Below, one piece after another: positions 12,455 through 54,817 of a stretch of 64,000 bases of DNA. Below the pieces are notes generated by a model. It made no database searches. It was not told where the DNA came from and was given only the letters and a program-made list of their open reading frames with translations. Numbering within the stretch: position 1 is the stretch's first letter; every line of letters starts with the position of its first letter. A program made the translations under genes and the position numbers. The stretch lies in assembly GCA_008632985.1 (NCBI GenBank), contig QPGO01000078.1:62001-126000 (forward strand). The letters run 5' to 3'. Source of the stretch: Psammoneis japonica (Eukaryota).

Positions 12455-13837
12455 AGCACTGCTGTGTTTACATTGTTGCATCTGAAACAGAGATGTGAAC
12501 CATCTTTGCACTGTCTCATGTTGGTGAACTGGCCTTGGCAGGGTCAACCATCATTGCACTGTCTCGTGTCGATCGAGCTGGCCTTGGTTGGGTCATGTGC
12601 AATGGTGACATGGGCAAAAGCAACCCGCAAAGCACATTGCATGTTGCACGCACATGCAGCACGGTGGTGGACAGGAGTTCATGTTGGACGCAAATGGGGT
12701 GGAACAGTTGGTTTGTTTGTTTGTCGGCAAGTGCCCGAACCCAACATGAGTTGCTTTGTTGGACACAAACGGGGTGGAATGTTTAGTTTGTTCGTTTGTC
12801 GGCAAGTGCCCGAATGCAACATGAGTTGCTTCGTTTGCAGTTGTTGGCTTCCTTGCCACAACGGCGTCCAGCTTCCTCATTTTCTCATGTCGCTCTGCTT
12901 CCACCTGAACAGCTTTGGTGTCATCTGTTTGACTTTGACGGGATCTTTTCCTCACCGGCAACTTGTTCGTTCTAGACGCAAGGATGTCTTTGTGCTGCAG
13001 TGCAGCTGAATGAGAACACTTGGTTGTCTTGCAGAACTCTTCACAGTCGCCCATGTGAAGGGTGCGGCCACCCGGCAAATGTTTCATTGTCACATGGCAC
13101 AGACCCGTGGTGAGCTTGTACAATGCGTCATGCGAGTGCTTGCAATCGCCGACAAAGTGACCCCTCAGGGCATTCTTGCAGTCGATTGTTCGTGTTGGAT
13201 CGATGGGTGTCCCAAGGGACTCTTGGGTGTTCACCAAGCAGCCACCCTTGTGTGCAACCATGTCCTTCTCCAAATCCATCTTGCCAATTTCCGCAATGAC
13301 GTTTTGGGTGAGGGCCTTGTCCCAGTCGAGAATGCGCCAACCCTTTCCAATGGCAGAACACTCTTGCGTGTGTGTGTGCATCAACCCGGGCAATGCATCG
13401 TTGAGTGCACGATGCATCGAGACACCAGAGGGAAGCAGACCAACGAACTGATTGCTTCCTTGCATTTCAAGATTCATTCTGCAATGCAATGAAAGGCAAA
13501 CCGCGTGAGTGTGGAATTCAGCAACATGCAATGACAACAGAAAGGGCACGGACTCACCTTTCGTGCGAGTTGTTTTGGGGCACGCAGCCCGGCTCCCCGA
13601 ACGTGGAATGATGCCACCAAGAAAAATCTTTGTTCTCGACATTCTGGCAGTCAAACACCTCCGCAAGCTTTGTCTCTCCTGCCATTTTCCATGAATGAAT
13701 GACCACCTTGGCCATTGGGTAAAACAGCTCCCATGTCTTGCATCGATGAAGCTTCCTCACGTCCTTCATGGCCACCCTCATGAGGAAGCTTTGGTCTTTG
13801 ACGCACTTGCGACATTGTCCATTGTGCTTTCTTGTAA

Positions 13838-14659
13838 GAGCATCTTCGCCAGTGAGTCGTAAACATAAACCTATGTCCGTACGTCTTCCGATACGAATGA
13901 GATTCGCAAAAAATCATCATTTTCGGTGGATCGTAAGCATATTTTTTGCGCTAATAACCCTTTTCGAATTTACGATTCATGAAAGTGAATCGCAAATCAG
14001 GCCTTGGATACGATCCACCTCCAAAATCGTAAACGAAAATCGTAAATTTCTGGTACAAAAAGGGTGTAGAAATCCTGTAGAAAGTGCGTGTCACCATGAC
14101 GAAACGACAATCGACGCTTTCTTGATGAGAGGGCCTTACAGAGGCCCAACAATTAAGACTTTGTCGTATCTTATGAACTTACATACGGCCGCATCGAGAT
14201 ATGGGAGGAGAACCGACATATGGGGGGTTTATGGGGTCAGAAGAGAATAAGGCATAAATCGTGTGATAACATTTCGCTTGTTTTCGCGATGTAGAATGAC
14301 TTTCACAACATAGTAACACATAGACATATAATATGAATTATTCTCTATTGATAGACGTCGACATATCTTTGAATAGACGGTGATTTGTGTCGTATATTGC
14401 GTTCAAAGCCGCCATGGCGTCATGTAAAATTCAACAAGTCCGTCCTACCATCAGTTAGTTATTGATATACGTGTATGGAGTTGGTTGTTACCTCAACGTC
14501 TGCCCAACCATCGGCCGAATGTGAATACGATTGTGATCGACTGAAAATGATGGTCGCGTGCAGAATCGTAAACTTATACGGGGCAGTCTGTTCGCTTGTC
14601 CTTTTAGGTTATGTTCCTATGTTTATGTTTATGTTTGCGACTCACTGGCGAAGATGCTC
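13838..14659. mobile_element. PIF/Harbinger (Tourist-like) MITE, 822 bp, TAA target-site duplication
   Basis: 33-bp TIRs GAGCATCTTCGCCAGTGAGTCGTAAACATAAAC (one mismatch); TAA at 13835-13837 and 14660-14662; excision restores the MULE frame (..KFRTDFTRKHNGQ..). Confidence 0.9.
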
Positions 14660-15245
14660 TAAAGTCGGTCCGGAATTTACGTGTGAGGTGTGGGCAGCAA
14701 GTTGCAAAAGGATCTTCGGGAAACAACAGTTTGATTGAACGCGTTCTGGAATGAGTGCGAGTGATCCGAGCACAACCCGCTGCCAAAGTGCAAGTCATCT
14801 GTGCCAAACAAATCGAAAGCCGCCTTCTTCATTGCAAGCAGCAGGTGCAGCGCACCCTCTTCGTGCTCCGCTGTTGCAAGTGCACAACCGACAGGCTTGA
14901 ATGAGGACGAAAAATGTTGCTTGCCCCCCCTTTCTCATTTTGTGTGGTCCGTGACTCCAAAAACAATGGTCACAAAATCATTGCCGACCACACTGTGCAT
15001 GCCGTCTGTCGTTCCAACTGTTTTGAAGTCGAGGTCCTTGCAGTCGCACATGTTTCTGAGCAGCCCAAGGGACGAAAAAACGATTGTGTTGTCCATTGCC
15101 GGCAAGAATGGACCCTTGCTCCCCTTTTTCTTGTTGTGCAATTCCTCGGCATTTCTCTGACACAACAGCATCCTGTCTCGAACCTTTTTGGGAAGGTCGC
15201 CGAGGTCGGGGACCGGAAGACAAAACATGTCTGTGTGGGGCATTC

Positions 15246-16562
15246 GATGTGTTTTCATCCCAGGTGAGAAACGCGCATGCGGAGGTGAGACGTTTCGTCT
15301 GTCCCTTTTCCATCGCCGTGCTTTTTGTGCGAGCAAATCTGACTGGACTTTCCCCCGATTTTTTGTTTCTTCTTTCCACAGACATGTTTATTTTGAAAAG
15401 CCAGCCGTTGTTCTCATTGGTTGAAGGGTGCGTACAAGAAAAGCGCTGTCTCGAAAGCGGCATTTTTTGGAGTGAAGCTGACAGCCATCTGCTCGTTGTT
15501 GTCATTCTGGTGCATTTGAGAGACTGTTCCACTGTTTCTTTCACCAAATCTGACTGCTTTGAAAGAATGCACGCATTGTTCATTGTGTGAAGAGCTCATG
15601 CCAAAAAAGAACGGCGTTCTAACTCCATCATTTGCACAAGAAAAATCGGGGGAACTGACTTTGCACGTGATTTTTTTGCGCGATCGGCCATTTCAAAGAT
15701 CGACTGATTTGTCGACCTGTGTGGGACACTTGAGTGAATAAAACAACAGGATTGAAATGGCAGCGTCAAAGTTCAATGTGTGTCTGGTTATTGTGTGATT
15801 TGATGTGCCCAAGCAGAGTTAAAGATGAAATGTTGACAAAATTTCACCGCTCAAAATGACTGGTTCTATCTTAGAATAAAATAAAATGGCTGCAACGCTA
15901 AGATGTCGCTGATGGTGTTGTTCTACTTTACAACAATGAAACTGTCACACTTGCATCTGAGATTCTTTATCCTCACACACCCTCAAAACCGAACACATGA
16001 CGATTCTCTTGTCGGCAGCGAAATCTGATGTTGTCGCGCGACCCAAAAGCGTCGTCCATGACGACTCAAAGTGCGGACGATACATTGTAAGAATCCCAGC
16101 AACGTGTCATAGAAACATTCTTCATTGTCAGTGTCCGGTGTCAAGCAGATGGAGCAGCGCGTTGATGAGAATCCTACTTCGCAAGCTGAGGAAGAGAGAA
16201 AGAGGTGTCAAAAATGTCATGAGTCAAAAGGCCATCCATGAGGCACAACAAAAAACAAAGATCAAATTTTCAACCACATCATCGCATTGAGCGTTGTCTT
16301 ATTGACCTGTCTTGGCATTCTCACCTTCTCAGTCACAACATCCGTTGGTGCAAGAATGGACGAGTTCATGGCGACGGCATGGTGCCATTTTCGGTTTGCG
16401 CGAATTGTGGTTTGTGGTTCGAGACATGGAAAAATATATTTTTACTGTCATGGAGCTCGTTTTTTACTAAGATTTTTGGTGCTAAATGTACGTCTCATGT
16501 AGAAACACGTAGAAAACCTCGTGATGTGTCCAAAAGTTTCTCACCTAGGATGAAAACACATC
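15246..16562. mobile_element. Non-autonomous TIR DNA transposon, 1317 bp, 4-bp TSD ATTC (superfamily uncertain; Sola is one candidate)
   Basis: 27-bp TIRs GATGTGTTTTCATCC[C/T]AGGTGAGAAAC; ATTC at 15242-15245 and 16563-16566; excision restores the MULE frame (..SKEGMPHTD..). Confidence 0.85.
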
Positions 16563-18919
16563 ATTCCCTCTTTGCTGTGTCGCTTGCCCCGGCATCCGGT
16601 GTCGCACAGATCTTTGGCGAGTTCCATCATGTGAACCTCGGAGGACACCAAATGGGGCTTGCAGGTGGATGGAAGACACAGAGCATGGTTTCAACTGAAT
16701 GCAAGCAAGTCTTGTGTGTGCTTGATCTTGACCTTTTCAGCGGGATTGTCCCCGAGGGATGACTGGGGACGTTGATCGTTGCTTCTGTTGTTGGAATCAA
16801 GCAAGTGACAAATCTTGTTGCTCACCTTGTCCCTCAGTTCTTGGGTGGCAAACAATGGGGCGATGGACGGGTTTTCGGAAACTGACAGTTTGGCAACTGT
16901 GCGGCGGGTGATGTCCTTTGGTTTGAGGGACGGGTCGTCCTGTTTTAGCTTGTCCACGTGATCCTTGACCAGCGGCGGCAAACCTCGGGAACCAGTGGAC
17001 AGCATGTGGTCCACCCACGTCCGGCGCATGTGGGTGGAGTGATCTCGGAGGATGCGACATTTGCAGTGCTCCTTGCCGGGGAGCATCACTGTCTCAGCTT
17101 GAAAGGGACAATCCTTGTCAACCTTGCAGCTGTGTGTTGTCGTGATGGGCTGCAGCGGGTCTTGTCTCCTCAGGAATGTGTTGTTGTTTCTGTCCGTCTT
17201 TGCGTCTGGACCTGGAAAATGTTTTGCCTTGTTTGCGGACTTCATGAGGTCGCCTGGAACGAGGTCAAGGGCACGGCCGGAACCATGATCATGGCGGGGA
17301 ACCGGCTTGGGCAGAGAAAGGCTGCTGGCTGTGTCGGGGCCACACAGCTTGGGTGGAATGGCTCCCAGCCCATGAATTTTGGAATCTCCATTGACAGATT
17401 CTTTGCATTTCATGACGGAGGAAGATTTCTTTTTCAGAAAATCATCACAAATGGCAGCAAGGAGCTCGTTGCCCCTTTTGCCCAAAATGGAGTCTCCAAC
17501 GTGCTGGACCCGCTCAGCAAACGCTTTGGAGTCCGGAGCAAAAATGGAGCGATCCTCAGTGCTGATCTTGCGAGCCACGACCGCAAGACATGAATCTCTG
17601 ACGGGACCGGGACCCACCCCTTCAGCCAGAGATCGGAGGCGGGTGGCGGGAGATGGAAGGTCGCCGTCGCTGAGACAAGACATCAAAAGAGTGGTGAAAA
17701 GGAAAAACGCCATGGCAGATGTGCTGAAACGAAGGAAGCGGAACAAAAAGAGCATCACGGGGTGCCAGATCTCAGTAGTGTGACAAAAAGTTTCCCGCCA
17801 AAACATCAGTCCCACAAGATCCGCAGGTCCCGCAAATGCTGCCAATGACAGGCCTCATTTCCGTTGATGGAATCAGCTTCTTTTGCCATGAACAAGTTGG
17901 GGAAAATTCAAACAAAGTTTGTCAAACAAATGTTGCCAATGCTGCCGAACGAAGGGCAAGATCGGGGGCGGGTCGACTCGATTAATTTCAAAAACAAAGG
18001 GCAGCAGCAACTCGCTTTCACAAACCCAGACACGAGAGCAAGTGAGGCATCTGCAAGATGACGAGAACGAGAGGAAATGCATCGCAGAACAGGTGAGCAA
18101 CAGGCGACGGCGTGGATCAACCAACACAAACAAGAGCTGATCCTGCGTTGTCACGTCTTTCATTGCACAGGCCGAAAAGGAACGGATCGCCGCCTGCAAG
18201 AAGCGTCTCTCGCACACAGCACTTTTTCCACCCGAGGCAGCAACCCAGGATGGCGATGGTGCTGAGACGACTGCGACGTGACTCCGAAGGTCGAAAGCAA
18301 GGCGCGATGAGTGAGATTGTCAGAGGGAGGGGCGGGTCTGTGTCCGCTGAGCCTCAGACTCCTGATGCCGCCACTGGAGGAGCCGATGGAAGGGCGCGGG
18401 TGACCGGAAGATTGACCAGCGGGGTCCGTCGCCAAGCCACTGGGAAATTCCTCAAATGTCCACGACACCAACCAACTGTCCACAAGGAGCTGTGGCACCT
18501 TCCCAGAGAGTCAAGGGGAAGGAAGATGAAGGACCTGTGGGCATGATGGGAGGGCGAAGAGCGAAGCCACCACGAATGGACAGATGATTCTTGTTTGTGC
18601 TGTTTGGCTAAACGGCCATGATCTGGGAAAGGCAGAGCAGGGTGGAACAATCGTGTGATGAAGGCACAACATCGCCGTTTGTCGGGACCGATTGAGGCAA
18701 GACGAGATTGCATTTTGTTGACTTTGTGCCCAAAAAACACCGAAAAATTGCACTCACCATCATGTCTGGTTGCATTGAATCCAATTTTTGAATGTTTCCA
18801 TTGGGGTGTCTTTCGGTCATTTACATCAAATTTTTCTTAAATGTTGTGATGGCCCGCAGACACACGAATGACCACATTGCAGATGCACATGGCAAGCTCC
18901 AGCAGCAGTTGGTCATGCA

Positions 18920-19620
18920 CGTTTGGGTTCGATGTGATGAGCAACTGTCATGCCACCCTGCAGCAGCCATGCCCTGCAGGAAAAGCTGTTCGGTGGTGGG
19001 CGCGCACGCGATCAAGCAGAGAGCAGAAGCAACAAAGCAAAAAACATGGCATGGGGCGAGACGTTGTAAAGTGACACGACAACAAGCAATGAGAAGAAAC
19101 CCAACTTGACCCAGGAACACAGCACACAAATGCATTCCAACAGCTTTGATCTCATCTGGAAACACCAGCTGGCAGATGAGTGAATGGCGTTTGCGTTGCT
19201 TGCCATGGTGTTGTTGTGTGTTGTCGTGCCGCTGTCATTGCGCATGAAGGACGGGGATCCATTTTGCCCACAGTGACTCTGTTTTGCCAACAGCAGACAT
19301 TTTGCTGTGTGCAATCAGAGGACATTTTGAGAAGTGCTTCATGACAACCCTGTTCGGACCGTCAAACAGAGTTTTTTTTATCCAGATTTCAGAGTCCTTG
19401 GGGGTGTTCTGTCAGACTTTTGGGTGGGTGCATCTGTGAATTAAAGGCACAAGAAAATTCAATGACATGCAAAACACCAAGAGACCAACACAAATTTGTC
19501 TTCCATGTGGACCACGTAGATTGTGCACCGGCAGAAAATCCACCGCATGTCAACTCACTCAGCAGCGGTTCTGCACATGTGCTGCTCACACCTCACACGC
19601 GCACACACACCTGCACAGTC
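18920..19620 (+). repeat. ~700-bp dispersed repeat, copy 2
   Basis: Collinear similarity to 7408-8085. Confidence 0.85.
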
Positions 19621-19685
19621 CAGTGACCGCACACACGTGCACAAGATGAAGGACAAATCAGCGATTGTGCAAGCAAGCAAGCAAC

Positions 19686-20180
19686 CCACTCTCCATCGTG
19701 AGTCCATGCGTCGACCGATGCACGCACTTCGCACATGTGCCCAGTCACCACTCTCCATTGTGAGTCCATGCGTCGACCGATGCACGCACTTCGCACACGC
19801 ACCCTGACCACAGATTTTCAAAAAGCACAGATTTCCCATTGTTCAGCTAAACCTGGGGTTGGTTTTTTCCAAAATTTGCCAAATTGTTGCGATCTTTGAA
19901 GAACCCTTCTGCAGGCCCGGCGTGGCAAAAGCAGGCCCGGTGCGGTCTGCGTGCACTTTGCGCACTGCGCACATTTGTGCCACTGAGGGGGGAAGACAGA
20001 AGGGGTCAGATTCCAGATTTTCCATTCTAAAATCTCACTGATTTCATGCGGCCCCCAAAACAATCTTGCAGATTTTCAAATCGACACAGATTTTCCATGA
20101 TGATCAGGGCACCTGGTCACCACTCTCCATCGCGAGTCCATGCGTCGACCAATGCGTGCGCTTTGCACATGTGCCCGGTC
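19686..20180 (+). repeat. Three 62-bp tandem units, the second interrupted by a MITE
   Basis: CCACTCTCCATCGTGAGTCCATGCGTCGACC at 19686, 19748 and ~20120. Confidence 0.85.
19802..20109. mobile_element. Hypermutated Tc1/mariner-type MITE related to 58313-58628; left TIR partly deleted; TSD reads CA/CA
   Basis: Right end CACAGATTTTCCATGATGATCAGGG vs CACAGATTTTCTATGATGATCACGG; shared internal TTTGAAGAACCC, ACATTTGT, CAGATTCCAGATTT. Confidence 0.75.
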
Positions 20181-21153
20181 ACCTGATGCTGCAGACTCTC
20201 AGAGAATTCAGACAGATGATGTGCCAGGGACGTGTGTGGCAAATGTGTTCCGGCGCTCTTGCGGATTTTGAGATTCCGGTGTGTTTCTGCACACGCAAAA
20301 AACTTTCTGCACAAACTTCTGCACAAAACATGCCAGAGGGCACTGGAGCAACCATCTGTCTGCATTCTTGATGGGCTCCAGTCCCAGGTGAGACTCCGTG
20401 TGACATTGGGCCCACAGAATTCTGCGTGCGAGCTCCGCAGCAAATTTGTTGAGCAATGAAAATGCAAATGATCGCCAACAGAAAAAGAGGCAATTTTACG
20501 AACGCATCTCCTCCTCCACACTTGCAGCACATCATCAACAGTTTGCTCGGGTGTGTTCTCCAGACATCAAAGAATGCACCCAGAGCATTTTCATTCTTGT
20601 GAATGTTGAAAATGGAAAGCCTTTGGCTTTGCAAAATGGGGAGCATGAAACAATTTCGTAGAATGTCACACGCAGAAATCTGCATGCGCGACATGCCACG
20701 CGATCCAAAAAACTCTTGATGTCACAGTGCAGCAGTGCTGGGTCCCACCCAGAGCTGGAGCGCATCTCTCTGAGAGTCTGTGACGTGACCGGGTGGGGTG
20801 TGAGAAGCGCGCACTTGTTGGTTGACGCGCGGAATCACGATGGAGAGTGCGAGCAAACCGTGGGACCAACACAGTGCTCACCACAAAAATCGATTGATCG
20901 CAATGATGCCGTCACACTGTTCATGATGCCCATTCCAGGTGATGAACATCGCAGCACACTGGATCTGACAAAGTGAGCAAATGCTGCCATGGCAGCTGAA
21001 AATCGGGTGTGAGACAAGACAGAGTGTTTTGAGCAGCATCAGCAGGTTCTAGAATTGTGAGATGTTGCGCCACTGGGACCGCTGATCAAGCGACAGTGGA
21101 CCAATGGCCAACAGCATGTAAACTGCCCATGTTTGTGACAGCATGTCAGCATT

Positions 21154-21157
<4 letters not shown>

Positions 21158-21223
<66 letters not shown>
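21158..21223. repeat. (CA)33 microsatellite
   Basis: Direct reading. Confidence 0.97.
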
Positions 21224-21225
<2 letters not shown>

Positions 21226-21799
21226 GCAAGAGAAAATGGTTGGGTGCACAGAAACAATGGCTGCTCAAGAAGCCAACCAGTCCCCCCAGAATGACAAAGA
21301 GTCTCTCTTTTTTGTCAAAAGGCATCATGAATGATTCTCTGTTCAAGGGTGGGAAGTCCCTTGTTTTTGGGGGCATTTTGGAAATTTCGCTGGAAAAATG
21401 GACAAAACAAGACAGCATTTTTTGCGAATGCGTGCGATTCATGGAAAAATGCTCAAACGGCTTGAGCGCGAATTCTGAGCATGCAAACAACACGACAATG
21501 GCTGAGGTGCCGTTCGTTGAATGCAGTGGAGGTGGGGAGGCCTCCAACTTTCTTCGTGAGTTTGTCACCCATGTCAAACACGACACACCCTGAAAAAAGT
21601 TGGAGGCTGCCCCACTGAGTTTTCGAGAACGAACGGCATTTCGGCCATTGTCGTGTTGTTTGCGCGGTGAGCGCCGAACGCACTGGGATTTTTTTCCACA
21701 ATTGCATCACAAATGATTAAAACGTTTGTCATTTTTGATGCTTTTTACAAACACATGTCAAAAACACAAGGGAGTTCCCAGCCTCAAAGCTGCAGAAAA

Positions 21800-22480
21800 G
21801 AACACAGTGGCTCAACATTGTTTGTCAATGTGGGGCAATGTTTTTTCTTGTGTTTGCCTTGCTGGGGTCCAGAAAAACCATCACATTGTGGCAAGCACAC
21901 ACTCCTCAGATCCAGCTGGAGCCGTGGTTTCCATTGCTTGATTTTCACAATTTTGAACAGAGCCAAAGGGAGAAGATGGCTTTGAAGGGAAGAAAATGAC
22001 AGAGCTTTGTTGAAGCCAAGAACAGCCAGGTGCAGCTGACCGAACCAACCTTGTGGCACTGCATCAGACTCCAACAAGTCCATGTTTTGCAGCAAAAATG
22101 GCTGGAGAGTCATCAAACTCATCCTGGCTTTGTTTCCACAGAGGCGCTTGGCTCTAAACAAGATTCATCACATCACATTCTTGTTGCCATTTTTGAGAGC
22201 AACTCAGTTGGGAGGCAACTGCGCTGACATTGTCAGAGTGTCCATGTGTCCACACAGCCTGAGCTTGCAGCTGGTTGAGAACAGAGTGGAGGAAAGCACT
22301 TCAATGGCAGCAGCCAAGTCAATCATGCTGGCAGCTGGGTCCAAAGGAGCACCAGCTTTTTTTGCATCACTGGAACAATTTGAGTGTGTGTTGCATCGCC
22401 AAAAAAGCATGTTGTGGGTCTTCCTGCATGGGGCAAGATGATGTTCAAAAGGAGAACAAAGGGATGATGGATGGTCAATG
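21800..22480 (-). repeat. Degenerate coding-like dispersed repeat, copy 1 (copy 2 at ~35060-35730)
   Basis: Shared GCCTTGCTGGGGTCCA, GGTTTCCATTGCTTGAT.TTCACAATTTTGAACAGAGC, GTCATCAAACTCATCC, CAATTTGAG..TGTG.TGCATCGCCAAAAA. Confidence 0.8.
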
Positions 22481-23269
22481 AAAGTTGGCTCCTCCTTTGT
22501 GGTGGGAACTCTGGACATGCAGTGAGGAGGTGTGGAACCTGGGCTGATTTGTGCTGACGTGCACGCAAGTGTCAACTTTGAGCTTTCCCCTCAACTTGCC
22601 ACCAGCCAGTTAAAAAAGATTTCATTGTCAATTGACAAGCTTGCTGCCAGCTGAAGTGCTGTCAAATGCACATGCACAGAATGGCGTGCAACACACCACA
22701 AATGAAAATCTGTGATCTTGTCATTTTGGGCTCTTGCACTGAACAATGTGGAGGCAACATCATGATGATCTGCGCATGACTTTCTGCTGTTGTCACAACA
22801 TGAGACAACTGGGGTCTTGAGTTTGGCTGCATTCTGTGTTCTCAAATCATTGTTTGTCCTGGCTGTTCTTCCCTTGTTGGTGGGTGCTCTCTGTTCAATT
22901 GAGTGACAACACACAAAGCCACAATTTGCAACATGCCAGTTGTGTTGTGATTGCTGCAGCTTGCACCCACAATGTCAGTTGTGTTGCAAGTGCTGCAGCT
23001 TGCAGAGATGATTGTGACATGGGAGCAGATGATGCAGGCACTTGCCTGTCATGTGATGGTGGTGCAGTGGGCAAACAGAAAGAAGTGCCCTTGCAACCAG
23101 GGAAACATTCTAAAAATTGGAGCAAATGCCCAGAAGCACTTTCTCAGCAGTGTTGCACCACTGGCTGGATCCCAACATCTCATTGCATTGCTCCTTGGAG
23201 AAGCACATGGCGCTTTTCTTTCCATCAACTTGAGCAGGGTGTTGCGCCCATCTGACAGCATGCACAAAT

Positions 23270-23850
23270 TTAATCTCTCTTCAGTGGTTGCTGAAGATGC
23301 AGACCATTTCTGGTCTCAACTCTGGAAAGCATGACATTGTGCACCCAGTTCTGGGTGCACACCTGTGGCTCCAGCTGTGCACAAGCACATTGTTTGCACC
23401 ACTTCCTTGCAGCTTGTGCCCGGTTGTTGCATTGTTCATTGCATTGGCAGTTGTGTTTTGCATTGGGTCTTTGATGCAGGCTTTGAACATGGTTGATTTG
23501 GGCTTGAGTGAGAAGGTTGGTGGGCCAGCACTTTTGTTGCTGTGTTTGAGCACCACATGATCCACCTGGGATGCTGTCACACCTGGAGCGAATGCTCCAC
23601 AGTCTAGAACAACCAGTGACGAACTCTCTCCCAGTTTCAGCATGACTTTCACTGCAGTTGCCTGTGCTCCACTTGCAGTGCTGCTGACCACATTGTCATT
23701 GTGTGGTGTCATCACTCTGCACCCCACATGTGTTTGCAATGCTGGGTCAAGTCTTCCTGACTGCACAGCTGCAGCGCTCTCCCCGCAGTTCTTCCAGAAC
23801 ATTTTGCACTCAACAAAAGGTCCACCATGCCTTCAACACTTGACAGCATC
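23270..23850 (-). mobile_element. PIF1-like helicase C-terminal remnant, probably from a Helitron
   Basis: RLDP.L...GCRVM...N, NNATTGHKLQG, and in a shifted frame VMLSRVETRNGL (SF1 helicase motifs T.HK.QG and YV.LSRV). Confidence 0.7.
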
Positions 23851-26800
23851 AATGTGAGTCTGTTTGTCAGCCCCTCATCAGCACTTGCAACTCTGAGACC
23901 CATCATTGTGTGGCAAAAGGTGGCAGCACACAAAAAAATGATGGTGGCTCATCATCTCACATTGGCTGATGCTGCGCCACCAAATCATCATGGACTGCAT
24001 TCCATTCAGCAGCACCAGCAGCAGTGTCATCACCCTGGTGGCAACATTGATGGATTTGAGGATGCATGCGAAGATGCTTGCAGTGCATTTGAAGATGAAG
24101 CTGGTTCTCCAAACATGAGTGCTGCAATTTCATTCAAGGAAAACTCATTTTGTGAACCCCGTGAGCAGATGGAAAACAACTGCATTGACATCTTTCATCA
24201 ACAAGCTGTCTCACCATTGCCAACCTGCTCCTCTTGGTGGAACAAGCTGCCACATGGATTCAAGATCTGGGGACAATTTTTGATGACATGAGCACAGTGC
24301 AGGTGGAAAATGCCACTCTTCTTGACACCTTGACCGTGGCGGGCACAGATGTGCAAGACAATCATTCACAGAGAGGGACAGCAAGGGAGCTTCATTCTGT
24401 GTTTGCAAGAATGAAAATCACTGACATGTGTGCAGCAGCCAAGAGACCCAGCATGTTGGGGAGGCTCCTCTTTGCCATCATCCAAGGCCTTCTTGAGGCT
24501 GCCGCTGCTTGTCATTGTCAATGGATCATTTCAAATCAGCAAACCATGATGCAAAGAGATCCAAGATGAAGACATTTGCATTGTCGTCAAGCAGTGCTTG
24601 TTCCATGTGTGCAGCCGGCAATTTGGAGCCATCAAGACATCCCAGCAGGACAACTTTTGTGCCAGTTTCTGAGTCCACAAATTTGGCTGCCAAGCAACTT
24701 TGTTTGTCAGGGTGGGGATGAAGCTTCTTTTGCCTCATCTCATCACTTTTGGAAAAAGATGAAGAAGCGTGCAGACTTGAAGAAGAAAAGGCACCTCTGC
24801 TGCTGCCATGGCAACATTGAGGTGGATGCACAGGCAACAACACGGTGCAAAAAGGTGCTGTGAGCAGCAAACAGGCCAACAACAACTGAGCCCTTGTTGT
24901 TCATCCATGTGAAAACATTTTTCAATTGCCAAAAAAAGACCTGACACATCATGTTTCTAGCTTTGAAGCTGCTTTGCATGCTTTGCTTGCATTGTGCATG
25001 CGCTGCTGTGAATTTGGAAACAACAACAGTGTGATTTCTCACCCAAAGCTCCAACCAGCACTTTGCACAGATGTCTGTTCCACATGGAATGTGGCATTAA
25101 AAAATCTCATGTTGGCTGTTGTCTGAGTCATCTCTGTCATTTGATCAAATCACACACTCTCATGGTGCTGTGCTGTGGCGCACACTGCAATCTGTGAAAA
25201 TTGGACATTCTTGAAGGCTGCTGCATTTTCTGTGGGATCCATGTGCACAAAGCTCAAATTTCATGCCCAAAGCAACAACTGCCCCTTTGTGCAGGAAATC
25301 GTGCAATGGAGACCAGGACAATTAAAAAATGGGTGACAGCGCATGTGCACAAAAAACAGAGGAAAGATCCCAAACATCAAAAGATCCATGACATCAAGCA
25401 GTTGTGAGAAAGACATGTGGCAAGGTTGTTAGAGACAATGAGATCAAAGCAACTCCTTCACTGTCAGTCTGAAGAAGCAGCTCTTAATGTCACACATTTG
25501 CACTGCAGGCTTGTGCACAAAACCAGCCTTGAACCCAAAGGTGAGCCACAGTCACATGCTTGTTCCACATCTGTGCTTGAGTTGACCTCAACACCATGCT
25601 TGATGCATCCCAACAGGCTCAAGCTTTCAATGTTGCCCATTTTTTTGATGGAGCCACAACAAGGCAGCTGTGGGAAGTGAGCTCACCCCAGATTTCAGGG
25701 ATTGTCTCGTGCTTTTTGGCTTTTGCCAAAAGAGCGCAAAACTTCTCATCATTCTGATGTCTGGGCCAGTTTTGCATTTTCATTGCATTGCACTCCAAGT
25801 TTGCATTTGTTTGCTGCAAGGTTGGCACATCTCTGAAGACAAAGACAGTCAAGCTCCACACACTTTCAGCAGATTTGCAAGAAATTCAATGTGTGGTGTG
25901 GGGACATCCAGAATGAATTTAGCCAGTGGCTTAAAACCTCCTGTGGAATTCCACACATCAGTCCTGGCATGCCAAACATTTGAGCACAATGTCTTTTGAT
26001 GCCACCCCATTGTTTTCTGTTGTGTGCATGTGCGCACATTCAGTCTTTTGTTTTTCAGCATGTTTTTAGAAGCTCAAAAGCTGGAGGTTTCACAGTGACA
26101 AATGTCACAGTTGGCAACAAACCACCACAGATGTGATGTGTTTCCAGTTTCAACAAAGTGTGGAAGGCAAGTTTTTTCTCTGCAGAAAACATGCCATTGT
26201 CCCAACCTGACATGTGCCTGCACAAGATTTCAGCCACTGGCTGGGGCCCCAAAATCATTCCCAACTGGTGCTTGGCCATCAATGCACCCGTCTGCACTGA
26301 GCGGCACCCGAACTTTGGTGTCACAAATTTTGAGATGCCCTTTTCCTGCACCATGGCAAAGAGCCCCCTGACTCACCCCGGGCTCATGATGGGTGCAACT
26401 GTGAGTTCTCCACACAGCACACCCTTCAGTGCAAGAAGGGCGGGCCAGTCATCTCTCAGCACAATGAGAGCGATCCGTGATGAGCTCGGCTGCCTGTGCA
26501 CTTTGGGACTCCCACTGCTTGAGTGTGGGTGGGCCCAAGCAATTCTAAAAACCGTCAACGGCCGTCACTGTGTAATTTGGCAGCATTTTGGCACTCTGTG
26601 TGTGAGGCATTTATGCAGAAATTACACATGTACAAACATTGGGGGAAACGAGCGCAGAGAAGAGACGACGCGAGCGAAGCACGAGCGGAGAGACCGACAA
26701 TGATGCAAGTGCCGGAGAGAGATGCAAGGAGAGCAATCCAACGACATTGCAAGGGCGCAAAAGAGAGGAAAGATCCATTTGAGTGAGCACCACATCTTCA

Positions 26801-28239
26801 ATAAAAAGAACAAAGCAAGAAGACATTGGCATGCACAAAAACTCACACAAAGAAGCACGGCACCAGCGCCTGCAAAATGACCACATCTGCGGTGACATGG
26901 AACAACACAAGGAGGTGAGAACATGCTTTTCTGCAAATGCAATGCAACAACGAGCAAACGACCAACAGAAACTCACCAGCAGGGTCAAAACTTGGGGTGC
27001 CTGGATCGTCAACGGTGGGAGGAACGATGGATGAAAGAGAGTCTGCTGGTTCCACGGAGCAGGACGACAAAAGCAGGCGGCAGATCGGCATGAGCAATGG
27101 CAGAAAGTCGGTGCTTGGGATCGAGTGACTCGTCCAGTCCACAAAAGTTGTGGCAGCAGCTTGGAGAACGGAGGCAGCGCCATGGCAGGACGGCATGGAC
27201 CGGGACAGAAGCAGCGCGCCATGGTGGAATGGCGACGGAGCCAAAAACGGTGACGGCGACGGTGCAGACCCATGGACTTTGATGTCCCCATCTTCAAGTC
27301 CCACACATCAAGATGCGGGACAAGGAGGTTCAAGGTGAGCGCCATTGCGAACGAGAATGGGGGAAAACGAGACTTGGTTCCGTGAGAATCAGAACTCACC
27401 ACATTTTGAGTCATTCTGACCCATTCTAGAGCCGTGGCTCACTCACACAGCACGACCCAATGGCGCACAACACTGTCAAGCAAGGCAGGGGTCGGGAGGC
27501 GGTGTCGCACCGGTCAAATCGGCCAAAAGCGCCATTGTCGGAGGGAGTGGTGGTTGTCAATCGGCCGCTCGGAAAAATTATGAGCCATCAACTCGACCGT
27601 GCACCGTTCGGAGTCGAACAAAATTTCTCGGTACAAAATGTGCACAGATGTGCGTCAGTGTAAAAATCGTGTAGAAGGGTTGTAAGTAGAACCGTTGCTC
27701 TCTCTATGTAGACTGCAAGGATTCTGCCGTTAAACCACACCAACATGCACAATTCTGCGTGGTCGATTTGAATCAATCCCACCAACGTTTTTGAATTTCG
27801 ATCGTAATGACGGCTTTAGGTGCTGAGATGAACACAACATGTGAGTTTGAATTAAACATCATATGAAGCGTTGACAATTTTGAATGATTGCGCGACTGCC
27901 AGTCGGCACCAAAAACCGTCACCTGTGAGCAAACCGCAATGCTTTGGTGCTTCAGTCTTGCACATGAAAGCGCTCCCCAAGCAGTTGACTGTCGAATTAT
28001 ACATGTAAAATCCTCACAGCGGGAGACCCTACACACGCTCCCGTGTGCACTCAATGCGCCTCGGTTATGACCTTCTCGTTGGGTTGCACAATGGTGAGTA
28101 GCCCTCCTCGTCGTCCACCCTCCTCGCTGGGGTCGTTCTCGCCATTGTGCAACCCGCCTCGTCGGTCTCCACCTCATTGCTTGGAACCTTCTCATCGGGT
28201 TCGCGGAGCTGAACCCTCCTCGTCGGGCTCCACAAGTGC

Positions 28240-28950
28240 ACAGGGCGCGTGCCTGCAGCACTCAAGCCCTCCGCAGTGCATGACAAACCTCTTGTCAACC
28301 CTGCTGGTTGCACCTCCAGAAGCCCAACTGTTGGCAACAAGTCCAGAGATGGCGACTGTGGAGATCTTTCAGCCAGAGGCTTGTTTGACAGAAGCACAGA
28401 CCTGGTCATGGATGTTGAAGCAGCTGACATGGATGCGCCGTCTCATGCTTCCAAGACCCCTCCTGAACAAGTCTTGCTGGACCACAAGAAGCAGAAGAAG
28501 CATGAGCATCTCAAGTCATGTCTTGAGTGATGCCATCAATTCTCTCCTGTGGTGGTGCCATGCGATGGCCTCCTGACTGGAAAGGAGGCACAAGCCGTCC
28601 TCCTGCATTGGACATCTGGAAAGACATCGAACAAGTGGCAGAGACCATGCTCCAAAGTGTGTGGCTTTGTCAACACACAATTCAGCACAGCTGTTGTCAG
28701 AGCAACTCATCTTTGTTTGAGATGCTCACGAATTCCCTCTTCTGGGATCAGCTCCAGATGTCCCTGCCATGTGTGCGCTGGGAGGATGGCGTTGGTCTGT
28801 CCTTGTGTCGATGTTGAATCGATGCCAATGCCACAACAGCACCAGGTGAGATGCAGTTCTGTTGAAGTGGCTCAAGACGACATCCATTGTTCATGAGTCA
28901 GCACAGTCACACCCCCGCGAGACGATCGAATCGGCACCAGACACGATTCA
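28240..28950 (+). mobile_element. 3' fragment of a second CRE-like non-LTR element, frameshifted
   Basis: KPSAVHDKPLVNP, GDLSARG, KWQRPCSKVCGFVN, VRATHLCLRCSRIPSS, WEDGVGLSL match the C-terminus of the 4590-6851 ORF. Confidence 0.85.
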
Positions 28951-29223
28951 AATTCCGCACCATAGATTGTGTGGCTTGCAAGTGCCATCAGCTGTGGTCT
29001 CATGTGCTGTCAGCGGGGCCTCAACTCTGCACGCAGCTACTTCCATCTCGCTCGCTCGCTCCAAAGGCACTCTCCCACCCCTGTGGCAGGGGAGAATGTG
29101 GTGATGTCATGGTCATGTGGCAGCCCACATCTCATTCATCACATTTTCACACAAATGTCCTCACATTTGTTCACGCATTTGTGCACAAATGCCAACAGCA
29201 GCAGGAAAAATCCTGAACCATGT

Positions 29224-31319
29224 TCTCCCCTAAAACTCTGACCACCAAAAACCGAGGGGTCGGAAGCGCACTTTTGGGAGCTCTTTTTCTCCGCACAAAA
29301 AACACGCGTTTCGTCGACTCGACCATGACGACCTCCCGTTCTTCATCCCCCACACCACCTGACGTGTCCCTGCCTGCCACATCTGATGCGGCAGTCCCTC
29401 CTGCATTGGCCGGCACCGTTGCACCTGCTGTCGTTACCCAAACACAGCCGATTTGCCATCCGGAGGATTTGGGCTTCTGTTCGCCAGATCCTGTGCCTGA
29501 AACACAAACACAGCGCCGTGATTGGTCTGCTCCTGTCATTGCATCCATGGAGAAACTGGATTCTCGTTCGCATCGCCGTGTTGTGGAAGGCACTGATGAG
29601 CCTTCTCTCAAATGGTCTGGGGTGCAGCTCCGAAACCAGGTCAAAAAACAAAAGCAACAAACCGACGTCAAGGTTCAGTGGGTGTGGCAGAGGAGCATCT
29701 ATGACAGGAGGCATGGTGACAACCTTTCTCAGGATGATCATTCCCAAGCAGAACCTTGTCTGTCTGGAGGTGATTGAGACTCACCCAGAGCCCAGCGGAA
29801 CCAATCGGAGCCAACAACAAGTGTCAAGATGAACCGCTGCAACATGTGAAGGAGGACGCAGCCAATGGAGTGCGGGCAGAGAAGGTGCCGGCATGCAAAG
29901 TGGCAGCATGGCTGTCGACAAGGCACTGGTTTTGAAGGTCTGACAGTGACAAACATGGTGAGCATTTGCCAAAAGCACGTTGCTGCCTGCCTCCATTTTA
30001 GCAACACACAAAAACAGTGTGTTGTGCATCACATGCAGAATTCAAACGGCAAGAGTGGCCTCTTGTGGAATTGCACACAATGACCCAGTCCTGGAAAATG
30101 GAGCAGTGTCCAAGTCACATGCACCATTTGAAACCTTGCCAAGTCGCCTGCAAACAAATGCCAATTCGCTGACCTCTCCAACTTGAAACTAAAAAACTGT
30201 GAAAGCATGCCTGCCATCTGGTTGTTGTCAGGTTTCTAATTTACAGAGAGCTGCACAATGTGTCTGTGTGTTCTAAAGATTAGACCACACTCGAGAGCCA
30301 ACCAAGAGGCACCATTCATGTCCATTGATGTGTCGTCCATCAGCAGGCCGTGGTTGCGTGGGTTTCCTGGTCCACCATCATCCGTCATCCATTGTGTTCC
30401 TTCCAAAGCAAAAACAATGACAGTGTCAACAGTGACTGCAGCAGCAAGGGTGGGATTGACAGTGTCGGGCATGCCAGGGGACCGAAACGCAGGTGCGGCG
30501 TTGGAATTTGTGATGGCATCTGTGGGAGGCGGCGGGGCAAGAATGAAAGAAGTGTGAGTTGCAAGCATTTCGTTGTGGACGTCATTGGCAAAAGACAACA
30601 ACAGCATCAACAGCACCTGCGGCAGCAAGGGCAGGAGCAACAGTGTCGGGCATGCCAGGGGGCCGAAACGCAGGTGCGGCATTGGAATTCGTGACAGCAT
30701 CTGTGGGAGGCGGTGAGGCGAGAATGAAAGAAGTGTGAGTTGTTGGCATTTCATTGTGGACGTCATTGGCAAAAGACAGTGACAGTGTCAACAGCACCTG
30801 CGGCAGTGAGGGCAGGAGCAACAGTGTCGGGCATGCCAGGGGGCCGAAACGCAGGTGCGGCATTGGAATTCGTGATGGTGTCTGTGGGAGGCGGCGGGGC
30901 GAGAATGAAAGAAGTGTGAGTCATTGGCACTTCATTGTGGACGTTGTTGGCAAAACACAACAACAGCGTCAACAGCACCTGCGGCAGCAAGGGCAGGAGC
31001 AACAGCATCGGGCATGCTGGGGGCCCGAAACGCAGGTGCGGCGCTGGAATTTGTGATGGCATCTGTGGGAGGCGGTGGAGCATGCAAACAACAGTGTGAG
31101 TTTGCAGCATCTTGTTTTGTGTGCATCGCACCCACGAGAACCGGAATGATGACATTGCCTGTTGTGTCAGTGTCACCAGTGACGGTGTCAGTGGGATCGG
31201 CATCCTGGGAAGGCGATGGGGAAGAACCACGAGGCATCGTGTTTTTTGTGCAGAGAAAAAGAGCTCCCGAAAGCGCGCTTCCGACCCCTTGGTTTTTGGT
31301 GGTCAGAGTTTCAGGGGAG
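29224..31319. repeat. ~83-bp inverted repeats (29224-29306 / 31238-31319) enclosing 2.1 kb; possible TIR element, no TSD found
   Basis: CTCCCCT.AAACTCTGACCACCAAAAACC.AGGGGTCGGAAGCGC.CTTT.GGGAGCTCTTTTTCTC.GCACAAAAAACACG in both orientations. Confidence 0.75.
30415..31080. repeat. ~181-bp tandem repeat, about 3.6 copies
   Basis: GTCGGGCATGCCAGGGG.CCGAAACGCAGGTGCGGC.TTGGAATT recurs near 30465, 30646, 30826 and 31008. Confidence 0.9.
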
Positions 31320-31384
31320 CTGTGGAGTGGGAATTTTCATTGACCACTCAGTGGTTGGTGATTGCAGACTTTTTCGCGTCGGTC

Positions 31385-31435
31385 CGGCAGTCGGGCAGTC
31401 GGGGGGTCGGGCAGTCGGGCAGTCGGGCAGTCGGG
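31385..31435. repeat. 8-bp (GTCGGGCA)n short tandem repeat, ~6 copies
   Basis: Direct reading. Confidence 0.85.
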
Positions 31436-32185
31436 TTGTCCGTCTGAATTTGAAAGTGTGTCCCTCGGATTTTGGAACGGGATGGGTTGTTTAGTGCAGA
31501 TGAATTCTTCGGATTCGTAGAATGATCATTGAGGACATGAGAGGTCGTGGGGACATCCTAAAAAATCGATAAATTCCCTACGACGGGCACGTGGCACGGT
31601 TTTTCAGGAGAGCTCGAAAGTGCTGTAAAATTGGGATTGCCGGCGTGGCATGTTCAAAAATGTATTCAGTTATAAACAAAGATAATTAATCGTGAATTCT
31701 ACACGAAACAGTCATATTTGGGAAAACATATCGAACAATAAGTGAGTTTGTGCGATGCGCTATTATGGCGATAAATTGGAAAAAAAAGAGTGTCCGTGCA
31801 CCTCGCTACAGCCCCAAAAATGGCATGAGACATCAAATATAACGGTCATCCGCGTCACCGGTGCGGTGGCCACGCCACTCAGCCGCCACAATACCGGCCC
31901 CGGCGGTAGGGCCCTACGTACGTCCAGACAATACAGCATGCAACGGCACACACCCACCCACAAAAGCGAAAGACAAGTGGTCAATGCTCCCCGCAGGCCT
32001 GGTTACTTATGGAATATACACATTCGTGTGAATATTAACATTAAAACTCAACGCACGGCGAAGCCGTGCGCGCACAACCACGCACACACACACAGCTCCC
32101 CTACCACAGGGGTGGCACTCTCCAGACTCACGATGGGAGAGTGCTCCAAAGGCGGGGCCCAAGGGGAAAGGGGAAGGTAGCGACC

Positions 32186-33835: not shown

Positions 33836-35059
33836 TTTCCTTGAAATGGACGCTTTTACGCCGATTGAAACACCGTTGGTGATTGGGGCGATTTTCTTTC
33901 AGCAATGAGTATACGATGCCGGCAGTAAGGTGAAACTTGGGATAAATAATTGTTTGGTTTTTTCATTTTGAGTTTCCACAGTTCTACCTCCGTCCCTTCA
34001 GAAACCGTTTTTCAAATTCGTTACAAAGCCATCAAATCAAGTACATGTCAAAAGTGCCGTTCAAACCGGTTCAAGTTTAAGAAGGACACTGCCTTCTCGT
34101 GTCCGTGATTGGACTGTTTGGAACTAATTGCAGTGGACAGAGTGACAGAGGAGTGATGAAAGAGATGACAGAACAGAGTGCAATGGGTCACATGACACAG
34201 ATTGGGCCAGAACCCATTTTAAAGGACTGGGTGTTACCATTTGTTCTTGTCACTGATCTGCTTCATCACGAGATGACTTGTCTCTTTTTTTGTCCAGAAC
34301 CTGTTGATTGCTGAAACATCAGTGGCACATTTCTCTGCCGATCTGGTCATTCGATCAGCTGGTCACCACCACTGACTGAAAAGGTCTGGTCTGAAATGCA
34401 AACTCTGCATGGGCAGATGCAACTGCAGATGAAGGAGCCACAAAATGCATTGGATGCACCACTTGTGTCATGGCCGCACAGCATGTCATTGTCACATTAA
34501 AAAAAAACATGTTGTCTGTGTGAGCCGTGGAGCTGGGGAAACAATGCATGCTTTTTGCAGAAGCATCACACTTTCTTCCTCGGTGAAGGCTGCATCACAA
34601 AGGTCCAAGTTAGCACATGTTTCATGCTTTTGAGTCTGACTTCTGCACCACAGTGTGGCCAAAGTCAGCCAATGAATCTCACTCATTTTCATGCCATCCT
34701 TGGACTTGGATGTTCTCCAAAGTCAGCCACCACATCACAACACAGCTTTGAGCAACAAGCACAGGCCTTGAGTGGCAGCAAACTGTGTGGTTTTCTCTGT
34801 GCTGGGTTGTCAAGGTTCACAAGTTGCAACACAGGCTTGAATTCTCCACTGCTGACCAGCTGTCAGTCAGGTCTCTCTAAGCACATGTTGAACATGTTGC
34901 TTGCTGCTGCTTTTGTGGATTCAGGAATGGTGCCTTTACCAAAATCTCCAGCACAGAGGATTGCTTGATCTTTTGTTCCCTCTTGAGCACCAAAGAGCCT
35001 TCTCTTTTTTGTTCAAAGGTGTCATGAATGATTCTCTGTTCAAAGCTGCAAAAAAATGA

Positions 35060-54397: not shown

Positions 54398-54817
<420 letters not shown>

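Follow-up and report, generated by a model that had tools for sequence, protein, structure and literature searches.

Background

The closest described counterpart of the phenomenon treated here is known from the chlorarachniophyte Bigelowiella natans, where 230 of 231 changes in two regions of integrated viral DNA were A:T>G:C and all of them are stated to lie at TpA (bioRxiv 10.64898/2026.01.13.699255). Adenine deamination has been proposed for this signature, and the TpA-depleted coding sequences of Bigelowiella are described as enriched for reverse-transcriptase and DDE domains (same preprint). In the present study we analyzed a stretch of 64 kb from the diatom Psammoneis japonica (contig QPGO01000078.1, positions 62,001 to 126,000; in the following the window), in which nine delimited blocks have lost nearly all TpA dinucleotides (TA) and in which the few surviving TAs are strongly biased in their flanking bases. 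As far as searched, targeted A:T>G:C hypermutation of repeats has been reported once, in 2026, for this one chlorarachniophyte and without an enzyme, and no paper on TpA depletion or on TET/JBP enzymes in diatoms was found in the literature outside subscription journals.

The window agrees with Bigelowiella in the kind of change, transitions from TpA to TpG or CpA (CA-versus-TG doublets at 28 against 1.8 per kb; seven of ten conserved tyrosines lost), in the confinement to delimited regions with the rest being normal (nine blocks, borders sharp to about 100 bp) and in a long-term state of low TpA and high CpA plus TpG. There are also clear differences. The events in Bigelowiella, a member of the Rhizaria, were seen live and in viral regions with 3.3% and 9.2% TpA, whereas the diatom presents the end state only; and the targets in the window comprise a retroelement, tandem arrays and unidentifiable repeats with TA odds of 0.01-0.1, which is near saturation. 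The main text of the preprint makes no mention of context, flanking, trinucleotide, tetranucleotide, diatom or stramenopile, and its figures and supplements may hold flank data. As far as searched, the diatom lineage, the targets, the near-saturated state and the flank rule are new here, whereas the signature itself was already known from Bigelowiella.

Among the better studied systems, the repeat-induced point mutation (RIP) of fungi inactivates repeats in place by transition hypermutation, C->T mainly at CpA (PMC2621366, PMC7296669). The in-place inactivation, the dinucleotide signature and the sharp borders are shared with the window. In contrast to RIP, which creates TpA, TpA is destroyed and CpA/TpG is made here, so that the outcome is a mirror image with TA odds of 0.01-0.1 and CA/TG odds of 1.6-2.1 in the blocks. 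RIP acts on duplicated sequence only. Judged from present copy number, which may differ from that at the time of mutation, the window has both depleted near-single-copy DNA and TA-normal high-copy DNA.

Three further systems act on adenine, cytosine or thymine. The mRNA off-targets of TadA carry a UACG motif in an RNA hairpin loop (PMC10027721). As for TadA/ADAT, T or U precedes the putative target A in the window and a pyrimidine may be favored 3' of it, but TAT is hit at least as much as TAC, TACG is not special, and both DNA strands are hit evenly. ADAR and APOBEC enzymes generate deaminase-driven transition clusters in mobile elements, which is a likeness; they work on RNA or single-stranded cDNA, on one strand and at UAG or C (PMC10661471, PMC4866542), whereas here both strands are affected, in place, at TpA and TAY is preferred (Y, pyrimidine; R, purine). 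In dinoflagellates, a TET/JBP homolog makes 5-hydroxymethyluracil (5hmU), a mark found enriched at transposable elements, which it silences; according to earlier work, 5hmU replaces T preferentially in TA and TC (PMC11572971). What links the window to this system is that repeats are the targets, that the host belongs to a related supergroup, that T in TA is a preferred site of the dinoflagellate mark and that a putative TET/JBP-like fold is encoded in one depleted block. The window differs in that the dinoflagellate mark is described as silencing and not as mutagenic and that TC is also preferred there.

Nine blocks of the window are depleted of TpA

A 1-kb profile separates two kinds of sequence in the window. 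In gene-bearing stretches the odds are 0.45-0.98 for TA and about 1.0-1.3 for CA/TG, in the remaining stretches 0.01-0.27 for TA and 1.3-2.2 for CA/TG, and in three stretches (about 21.7-26.5, 34.2-36.9 and 48.9-54.4 kb) CpG is gone as well (odds 0.06-0.37). A first segmentation yielded 142 TA in 36,545 bp of depleted and 1,021 TA in 23,502 bp of normal sequence, with 3,953 bp (96 TA) in neither class. After refining the borders from the list of TA positions, nine depleted blocks with a total of 38,953 bp contain 159 TA and six normal blocks with 23,017 bp contain 1,034 TA, while 2,030 bp with 66 TA are assigned to neither class. The borders are sharp. At 4600, which is the end of a reverse-transcriptase open reading frame (ORF), TA density shifts within about 100 bp, the spacing being 10-20 bp up to this position and sparse past it.

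The most extreme case is the stretch 21700-26500 within the largest block, where 15 TA are left compared to 333 expected and 42 CG compared to 269 expected from base composition (TA odds 0.01-0.08, CA/TG odds 1.85-2.12). The depleted blocks, together with the features lying in or between them, are the following (strand given where one applies; depth refers to run X1):

4601..7700, minus strand: depleted block 1, 27 TA, 14 of them YTAR; reverse-transcriptase ORF 4593-6872, 760 aa
8100..13830: depleted block 2, TA lost and CpG kept, 27 TA, 10 YTAR; tandem array 8246-8897 and ORF 9658-11130
9658-11130, plus strand: ORF of 491 aa in block 2, from a family of 32 unannotated proteins, tyrosine content 0.6%
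13835..14680: TA-normal, AT-rich insert in depleted DNA, 62 TA in 846 bp
14690..15615: depleted block 3, 2 TA; one arm of a 27-nt inverted repeat
16560..27570: depleted block 4, the largest, 38 TA, 24 YTAR, 1 RTAY; includes 21700-26500
18.7-21.4 kb: high-copy part of block 4 (depth in the block up to 58,726)
26310-26492: 5' piece of a second reverse-transcriptase copy, in block 4, profile match 2.2e-15
27570..28110: TA-normal high-copy island, 19 TA listed from 27579 to 28099, depth 2,659
28110..31485: depleted block 5, 11 TA, 6 YTAR, 0 RTAY
28255-28770: 3' piece of the second reverse-transcriptase copy, in block 5, profile match 1.6e-46
30408-31119: 181-bp tandem array in block 5, nine columns alternating CA/TG between units
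34240..36930: depleted block 6, TA and CpG lost, 9 TA, 7 YTAR; paralog of 21784-22405
40180..41600: depleted block 7, 6 TA, all 6 YTAR
41700..46165: depleted block 8, 22 TA, 12 YTAR; ORFs with weak zinc-finger and PhyH/2OG-oxygenase matches
48870..55100: depleted block 9, TA and CpG lost, 17 TA, 13 YTAR, 0 RTAY

Surviving TpA sites are biased in their flanks

A reading of the sequence without database searches (in the following the sequence-only reading) had claimed that nearly every TA left in 21700-26500 is flanked as YTAR. This was borne out, as 14 of the 15 TAs are of this type (7 TTAA, 3 TTAG, 2 CTAA, 2 CTAG), the single other one being TTTACA at 21746. The sites that had been named as examples were found within 2-3 bases of the positions given for them (TCTAGA with its TA at 23605, TTTAGC at 25920, ATTAAA at 25098 and 25323). 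The bias had also been reported for 49000-54400 and 4760-6850, where we counted 12 of 16 and 10 of 16 YTAR, respectively, and the near absence of GTAC, ATAT, GTAT and ATAC could be confirmed as well (ATAT 0, ATAC 0, GTAT 1 and GTAC 5 among the 142 TAs). Even the exception that had been pointed out, CTAG changed to CCAG, is real: it is the sole mismatch of the 27-nt inverted repeat, with CCAG in the arm 15246-15272 and CTAG in the arm 16536-16562.

The bias holds for the window in general. The surviving TAs of the refined depleted blocks comprise 92 YTAR, 56 mixed and 11 RTAY sites, those of the normal blocks 173, 560 and 301 (p 3e-31); with the first segmentation the numbers are 85, 51 and 6 versus 171, 549 and 301 (chi-square 143, p 8.5e-32). 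In eight of nine depleted blocks the YTAR share lies between 0.37 and 1.0 (the ninth has 2 TA only), compared to 0.08-0.20 in all six normal blocks. The overall share of 58% in the depleted blocks exceeds the base-composition null of 0.25, the share of 0.282 that a first-order Markov model predicts inside the blocks (binomial p 6.7e-15) and the share in 79 unmutated retroelement relatives (0.211, p 4.7e-29). Counting of the NTAN tetramers in depleted and genic blocks thus reveals that the residual TAs are not spread as base composition predicts.

Relative to normal DNA, RTAY sites survive at 0.022, mixed sites at 0.059 and YTAR sites at 0.314. For these ratios the tetramer make-up of the gene blocks was taken as the starting state of the depleted blocks, and the class proportions in the 79 relatives are similar to it. 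The data reject a model of tetramer survival that ignores context (deviance 171, df 9, p 4e-32, ten tetramer classes) as well as a multiplicative duplex model (deviance 22.2, p 0.001), whereas an additive half-site model fits (deviance 8.6, df 6, p 0.20), with rates of 2.57, 1.79, 0.79 and 0.47 for T, C, G and A as the base 3' of TA. The data fit a loss order TAT > TAC > TAG > TAA, TAY being lost about 2-5 fold faster than TAR. Should the blocks instead have reached a balance with back-mutation, larger rate ratios would follow. The sequence-only reading had taken the pattern as the work of a context-selective enzyme and not as compositional drift; drift is rejected along with the no-context model, and an enzyme would be a probable source of the selectivity.

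The next base counts as well. Among the survivors, 51% have T at -2 or, equivalently, A at +2, compared to 28% (p 1.3e-7). Half-site survival is highest for TAAA (0.28) and TAGA (0.23), lower for TAGC (0.13) and TAGG (0.024), and low for TATA (0), TACT (0.017), TATT (0.021) and TATC (0.023), while sites of the type TTTAAA survive at 0.71 (6 vs 5 before scaling). TARA is therefore the most protected half-site, and the rule of a TAY target, as originally formulated, is incomplete.

The YTAR share grows with depletion, from 0.37-0.55 where CpG is kept to 0.76-0.93 where CpG is lost too (0.76-0.78 in blocks 6 and 9, 0.93 in 21700-26500). In these three CpG-poor regions the decay of CpG feeds the same CA/TG products. 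The residual CpG sites of 21700-26500, 34240-36930 and 48870-54380 show a flank bias opposite to that of TA: RCGY accounts for 49 of 143 sites compared to 197 of 944 in normal DNA and YCGR for 19 of 143 compared to 221 of 944 (p 3.6e-4). GCGC survives at 1.20, which means no loss, and the heaviest loss is seen for ACGA/TCGT (0.09) and TCGA (0.11).

TpA was changed to CpA or TpG in place

The direction of the change can be read from the reverse-transcriptase ORF 4593-6872 on the minus strand, which belongs to a diatom retroelement family (213 homologs, best 53% identity). Ten columns are occupied by tyrosine in at least 70% of 25 relatives. Three of these tyrosines are kept, four are replaced by histidine (CAY) and three by cysteine (TGY), and tyrosine is the least kept conserved residue of this ORF, other residues being kept at 0.64-1.0. 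One of the changes lies in the motif WYADD of the relatives' consensus, which reads WCADD here. In total, single TA>CA/TG steps make up 14 of the 81 substitutions at conserved columns. The same tendency is visible in the composition of predicted products, since tyrosine amounts to 0-0.8% in nine of nine ORFs from depleted blocks but to 1.9-3.6% in eight of eight normal ORFs, with histidine and cysteine raised in the former.

Repeat copies within the window provide the second line of evidence. In eight pairs with 2,307 aligned columns, CA stands opposite TG in 65 doublets (28 per kb), which make up 41% of the adjacent double differences. The control, 187 pairs of unmutated reverse-transcriptase relatives with 70-90% identity, has 442 such doublets in 245,912 columns (1.8 per kb, 3.2% of adjacent double differences), which is a 16-fold lower rate, and the 406 columns of a TA-normal tandem array contain no such doublet. 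The pair formed by block 6 and 21784-22405 alone, with 75% identity, contributes 17 CA-versus-TG doublets. Where TA differs from its partner in the repeat pairs, the partner is CA or TG in 14 of 18 cases. CA opposite TG marks an ancestral TA that was resolved in two ways. In the tandem arrays 8246-8897 (seven columns) and 30408-31119 (nine), CA and TG alternate between units at 16 columns, and therefore the change came after amplification and in place.

The metagenomic relatives of the reverse transcriptase (n = 79, from the best 80 of 206 matches, a selection that favors intact copies) have TA odds of 0.30-0.98, so that the depletion was not inherited with the retroelement family. Strong TA depletion is absent among these 79 relatives, and the process was not seen outside the window. 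Low TA among them follows high G+C (Spearman -0.54), and the correlation of TA odds with YTAR share (+0.26) has the wrong sign for hypermutation.

Both products are about equally frequent. The CA/TG bias per block does not exceed 0.14, and the products are interleaved on both strands; in a runs test, which has low power with about half of the CA/TG being ancestral, same-strand runs were no commoner than in normal blocks. Taken together, the comparisons show a loss of TA by mutation to CA or TG on either strand about equally.

Which strand is hit

A rule by which the A in TAY is changed on its own strand predicts RTAR to become RCAR and YTAY to become YTGY. We examined polarizable events in mixed contexts for which both products are detectable. 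The repeat alignments gave three events for and three against the rule, the Tyr/Ile codons of the first reverse-transcriptase copy three for and two against (leaving out two events whose alternative product is silent) and the second copy none for and one against (leaving out one weaker case, also against). The resulting 6 of 12 has p 0.18 under a 2-fold and p 0.019 under a 4-fold preference. The conserved tyrosine columns in the family of ORF 9658-11130 were too few to add events. Sorted by inferred context, the CA-versus-TG doublets comprise 13 RTAY, 23 mixed, 4 YTAR and 3 unclassifiable cases, a split near the ancestral proportions and compatible with ratios from 1:1 to about 6:1.

Bulk composition gives a somewhat different picture. 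RCAR/YCAY amounts to 0.90-2.10 (median 1.31) in 11 depleted blocks, 0.66-1.17 in six normal blocks and 1.10 in the relatives. In the blocks that keep CpG, the gain of the product expected from the TAY rule is ahead in four of four contrasts against the gene baseline and in three of four against the relatives' baseline; the gain ratios, which depend on the baseline, are 1.2-3.9 in seven of the eight contrasts and 0.88 in the eighth. In our reading, the own-strand preference is real and about 2-fold, which is below the 2-5-fold implied by the survival model alone, and the flank effect may therefore operate in part at the level of the whole TpA step. Of the preferred 5'-TAY-3' target postulated in the sequence-only reading, the faster loss of TAY half-sites stands, while action on the own strand is weakly supported, 6 of 12 events being in line with it.

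Targets and copy number

Blocks depleted of TA only are mostly of high copy (depth in the thousands in run X1), and those depleted of TA and CpG are near single copy; 21700-26500, for instance, has a depth of 100-206 compared to about 60-70 per single contig. The simplest reading is an age series, in which young repeats are untouched, older ones have lost their susceptible TAs and the oldest have lost CpG too. The island 27570-28110 is of high copy and yet TA-normal, and therefore copy number alone does not bring depletion. This island lies within an insert of about 1.7 kb (26493-28254) that interrupts the second reverse-transcriptase copy. A reverse-transcriptase profile run over the six-frame window revealed no third copy besides the two (4593-6872 and 26310-28770). 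The insert 13835-14680 is flanked by 37-bp inverted repeats (arms 13837-13873 and 14624-14660, 94.6%) and looks like the later insertion of a small terminal-inverted-repeat element. The arms of the 27-nt inverted repeat (15246-15272 and 16536-16562) are 96% complementary and 1,263 nt apart, with a partly TA-normal stretch between them.

Pieces of 783-3,159 bp from depleted as well as normal DNA recur in contigs assembled from run X1, with 0-2 differences and a depth of 54-70. This agreement excludes assembly error better than library chemistry, as the run may be the window's own source. The differences listed between the window and the run X1 contigs (40 of 1,824) are mostly CpG/TpG and separate the window copy from its family.

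Mechanism and alternatives

The reading that we prefer is that transposon-derived DNA was edited in place at the DNA level and that adjoining genes and intergenic DNA were spared. TpA would be converted to CpA or TpG on either strand about equally until almost no TpA is left. R-TA-Y would be converted fastest, mixed sites at an intermediate rate and Y-TA-R slowest, most of all T-Y-TA-R-A; the TAs that remain would therefore be the refractory class. The chemical step might be an enzymatic deamination of adenine to inosine in 5'-T-A-Y-3', with inosine being read as G at the next replication, and the deaminase might be directed to silenced repeats and so serve genome defence. We regard a flank-selective enzymatic editing of TpA at the DNA level, by the adenine or the thymine route taken jointly, as probable. 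Adenine deamination specifically has, in our estimation, somewhat less than an even chance. Sequence cannot separate A>G from T>C, and deamination and thymine oxidation fit about equally. Adenine deamination is an efficient reaction. In its favor are the T before and the pyrimidine preferred 3' of A, as in the UACG motif of TadA (PMC10027721). The link to TadA that had been drawn in the sequence-only reading is not supported in that form: TACG is not special, no deaminase gene was found in the window, and the strand-symmetric, interleaved outcomes do not single out a deaminase specific for single strands.

Several observations weigh against editing by a targeted deaminase. The 18 long ORFs of the window and 92 ORFs from the depleted blocks yielded no deaminase domain. 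TACG, with a survival of 0.057, is no more depleted than TATN (0-0.05). Strand-coordinated runs, as expected from a deaminase acting on exposed single strands, are lacking in a test of low power, and the polarizable events fit a 1:1 outcome with respect to the TAY rule. Concerning the targeting of repeats, there are TA-normal stretches of high copy (27372-28038, depth 2,659; 31374-32040, depth 11,099) as well as fully depleted stretches near single copy (depth 100-206). Finally, ancestral states were inferred from 64 kb only, with no mutation event being observed, and the survival ratios rest on the assumed starting make-up, product gains exceeding TA losses under either baseline, which is ambiguous.

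It is possible, though we lean against it, that the same flank-selective process acts in place on thymine. A dioxygenase of the TET/JBP type would oxidize T in R-T-A, so that 5-hydroxymethyl- or 5-formyl-uracil would form a symmetric mark at the palindromic TpA of silenced repeats. The oxidized base would at times pair with G, giving T>C, and TpA would decay like methylated CpG. Since A>G in one strand means T>C in its complement, every sequence result fits this route equally well, and symmetric, interleaved outcomes without same-strand runs suit an enzyme that flips bases from duplex DNA. There is also a precedent in dinoflagellates, with transposable elements as targets and a preference for TA (PMC11572971).

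A candidate for such an enzyme may be encoded in the window itself, as the predicted fold of ORF 9658-11130 in depleted block 2 is nearest to TET/JBP. The model has a predicted local distance difference test score (pLDDT) of 60.7 and a predicted template-modeling score (pTM) of 0.58. Out of 48,161 chains, the four that rank highest as matches are NgTET1 (Z 8.1, root-mean-square deviation (rmsd) 3.8, 167 aligned; a Z near 8 being borderline), CcTet (Z 7.0, rmsd 4.2, 196 aligned), TET2 (Z 6.6, rmsd 4.2, 174 aligned) and CMD1 (Z 6.0, rmsd 5.0, 187 aligned), followed by FTO and AlkB homologs. Within the family, H264-x-D266 is conserved in 14 of 14 members, R310 in 13 of 13 and H353 in 12 of 12; H264 and D266 sit in a stretch of the model with pLDDT under 50, and neither the order nor the places of HxD, His and Arg could be matched to the canonical triad. 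A Foldseek search with the model gave no match at E up to 0.001, none of the 14 members of the family matched a Pfam family at E up to 1, the family profile yielded no PDB sequence match, and a protein atlas gave no lead. In viral contigs there was no relative of P0241, the closest relative of this ORF, or of ORF 12596-13756, in scans that reach close relatives only. ORF 9658-11130 as a putative TET/JBP-like dioxygenase is thus a lead and not an assignment.

The candidate also has weaknesses as an argument for thymine oxidation. Its fold match is borderline, as a Z under 8 can reflect a common arrangement, and the model is mediocre; it lacks a Pfam or PDB sequence match; and the copy in the window is itself hypermutated, so that it may be inactive or have no part in the process. 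In addition, as 5hmU forms faithful pairs with A, it would be strongly mutagenic only after further oxidation or over long times, which weighs against this route.

Going one step further, and quite tentatively, TpA in the repeats of this diatom might be the counterpart of methylated CpG in vertebrate repeats, namely a symmetric, heritable and mutagenic mark that is set on silenced transposons, best at R-TA-Y. Its writer would act on duplex DNA, either as a double-strand adenine deaminase or as a transposon-associated, TET/JBP-like thymine dioxygenase, the marked DNA would decay to CpA/TpG, and the system would be common to stramenopiles and Rhizaria. If this is true, the system is old within the stramenopile-Rhizaria supergroup and the flank rule is a fingerprint of its enzyme. 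With a diatom near saturation, the range of the process would come to include one of the major groups of primary producers in the sea. The flank rule, TAT > TAC > TAG > TAA with TARA most protected, provides a specificity for the screening of candidate deaminases and dioxygenases, and repeat annotation tools could use it to recognize and computationally undo the decay.

Less attractive, and in our view unlikely, is the explanation that TA was removed without selectivity and that the residual TAs are young, either regrown through ordinary C>T transitions at CA/TG or introduced with small insertions. Some residual TAs do cluster, for example five within 4724-4770, and later TA-normal insertions exist (13835-14680, 27570-28110). 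However, regrowth should mirror its sources, and YCAR is the rarest class of CA/TG in the depleted blocks (about 30-51 per kb compared to 50-75 for RCAR and 41-64 for RCAY). About 20% YTAR would be expected from regrowth but 58% were found, and the bias is seen in eight of nine blocks.

Very unlikely is the possibility that the blocks never had TA, be it by a foreign or specialized composition or by selection against TA. It could be argued that most of the depleted DNA is without recognizable origin. This explanation does not account for conserved tyrosine codons that became His or Cys, the WYADD motif included, nor for tandem units and dispersed copies that differ by CA-versus-TG doublets, and relatives elsewhere have an ordinary TA content.

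We consider it highly improbable that RNA of the element was edited by an ADAR-like enzyme and then reverse transcribed and reinserted. One of the targets is a retroelement, and U is preferred before the edited A according to the Bigelowiella preprint (bioRxiv 10.64898/2026.01.13.699255). This route would alter one strand, whereas a single ORF shows four changes of Tyr to His and three to Cys, and the units of the tandem arrays diverged in place. Furthermore, the hot spot of ADAR2 is UAG (PMC10661471), yet TAGA and TAGC are among the better survivors (0.23 and 0.13), TAGG being an exception (0.024). RNA editing followed by reverse transcription was accordingly rejected as a candidate, excluded by the interleaved CA/TG and the in-place divergence of the tandem units.

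A sequencing or assembly artefact from a modified base at TpA is hardly credible at all: the single N and a microsatellite mark the assembly as a draft, but the independently assembled run X1 contigs agree with 0-2 differences at similar depth, and strand-dependent misreading would yield all-CA or all-TG versions at half depth and not interleaved products.

Other features of the window

Long ORFs are frequent in the depleted blocks, as 192 of the 255 stop-to-stop ORFs of at least 90 aa overlap them, in all six frames. They arise falsely because TA>CA/TG removes TAA and TAG, TGA arises only from TAA, and CA is never part of a stop codon; the process thus opens many reading frames and closes none. 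Long ORFs in depleted blocks are therefore not evidence of genes, and as a practical warning, gene finders will over-call in TA-hypermutated DNA. A Pfam search with 92 ORFs from the depleted blocks gave just weak zinc-finger and PhyH/2OG matches. Both come from block 8, where ORF 41692-42870 (plus strand) has weak C2H2 zinc-finger matches and ORF 42907-43473 (plus strand) matches PhyH/2OG-Fe(II) oxygenase at E 2e-6; both are almost without tyrosine. Translated in six frames with X in place of stops, 21700-26500 matched no Pfam family, so that no recognizable coding remnant is present there, and the homolog search with ORF 16694-17854 was empty. Rfam and tRNA scans of the window gave no match.

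The TA-normal long ORFs encode, according to a domain scan, ordinary proteins of eukaryotes: a PP2C protein, a flavodoxin-like reductase, a histidine phosphatase, part of a PDZ protease and a subtilase with a Hint module. The closest named relatives of the PP2C protein are from diatoms (Mayamaea, Fragilaria and Phaeodactylum), and the best hits without a species name reach 58% identity. The sequence is accordingly of nuclear origin. The subtilase domain end and the Hint module are found on an ORF of 738 aa (61699-63915, minus strand).

Some simple repeats complete the picture of the window. A (CA)33 run is located at 21158-21223. Block 9 ends with a perfect (TG)209 run (54399-54817), followed by the single N of the window at 54818, which is probably an assembly gap. 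Tandem repeats of normal TA content at 47631-48169 (periods 39, 57 and 111 bp) lie inside overlapping long ORFs of both strands and are perhaps repetitive coding sequence.

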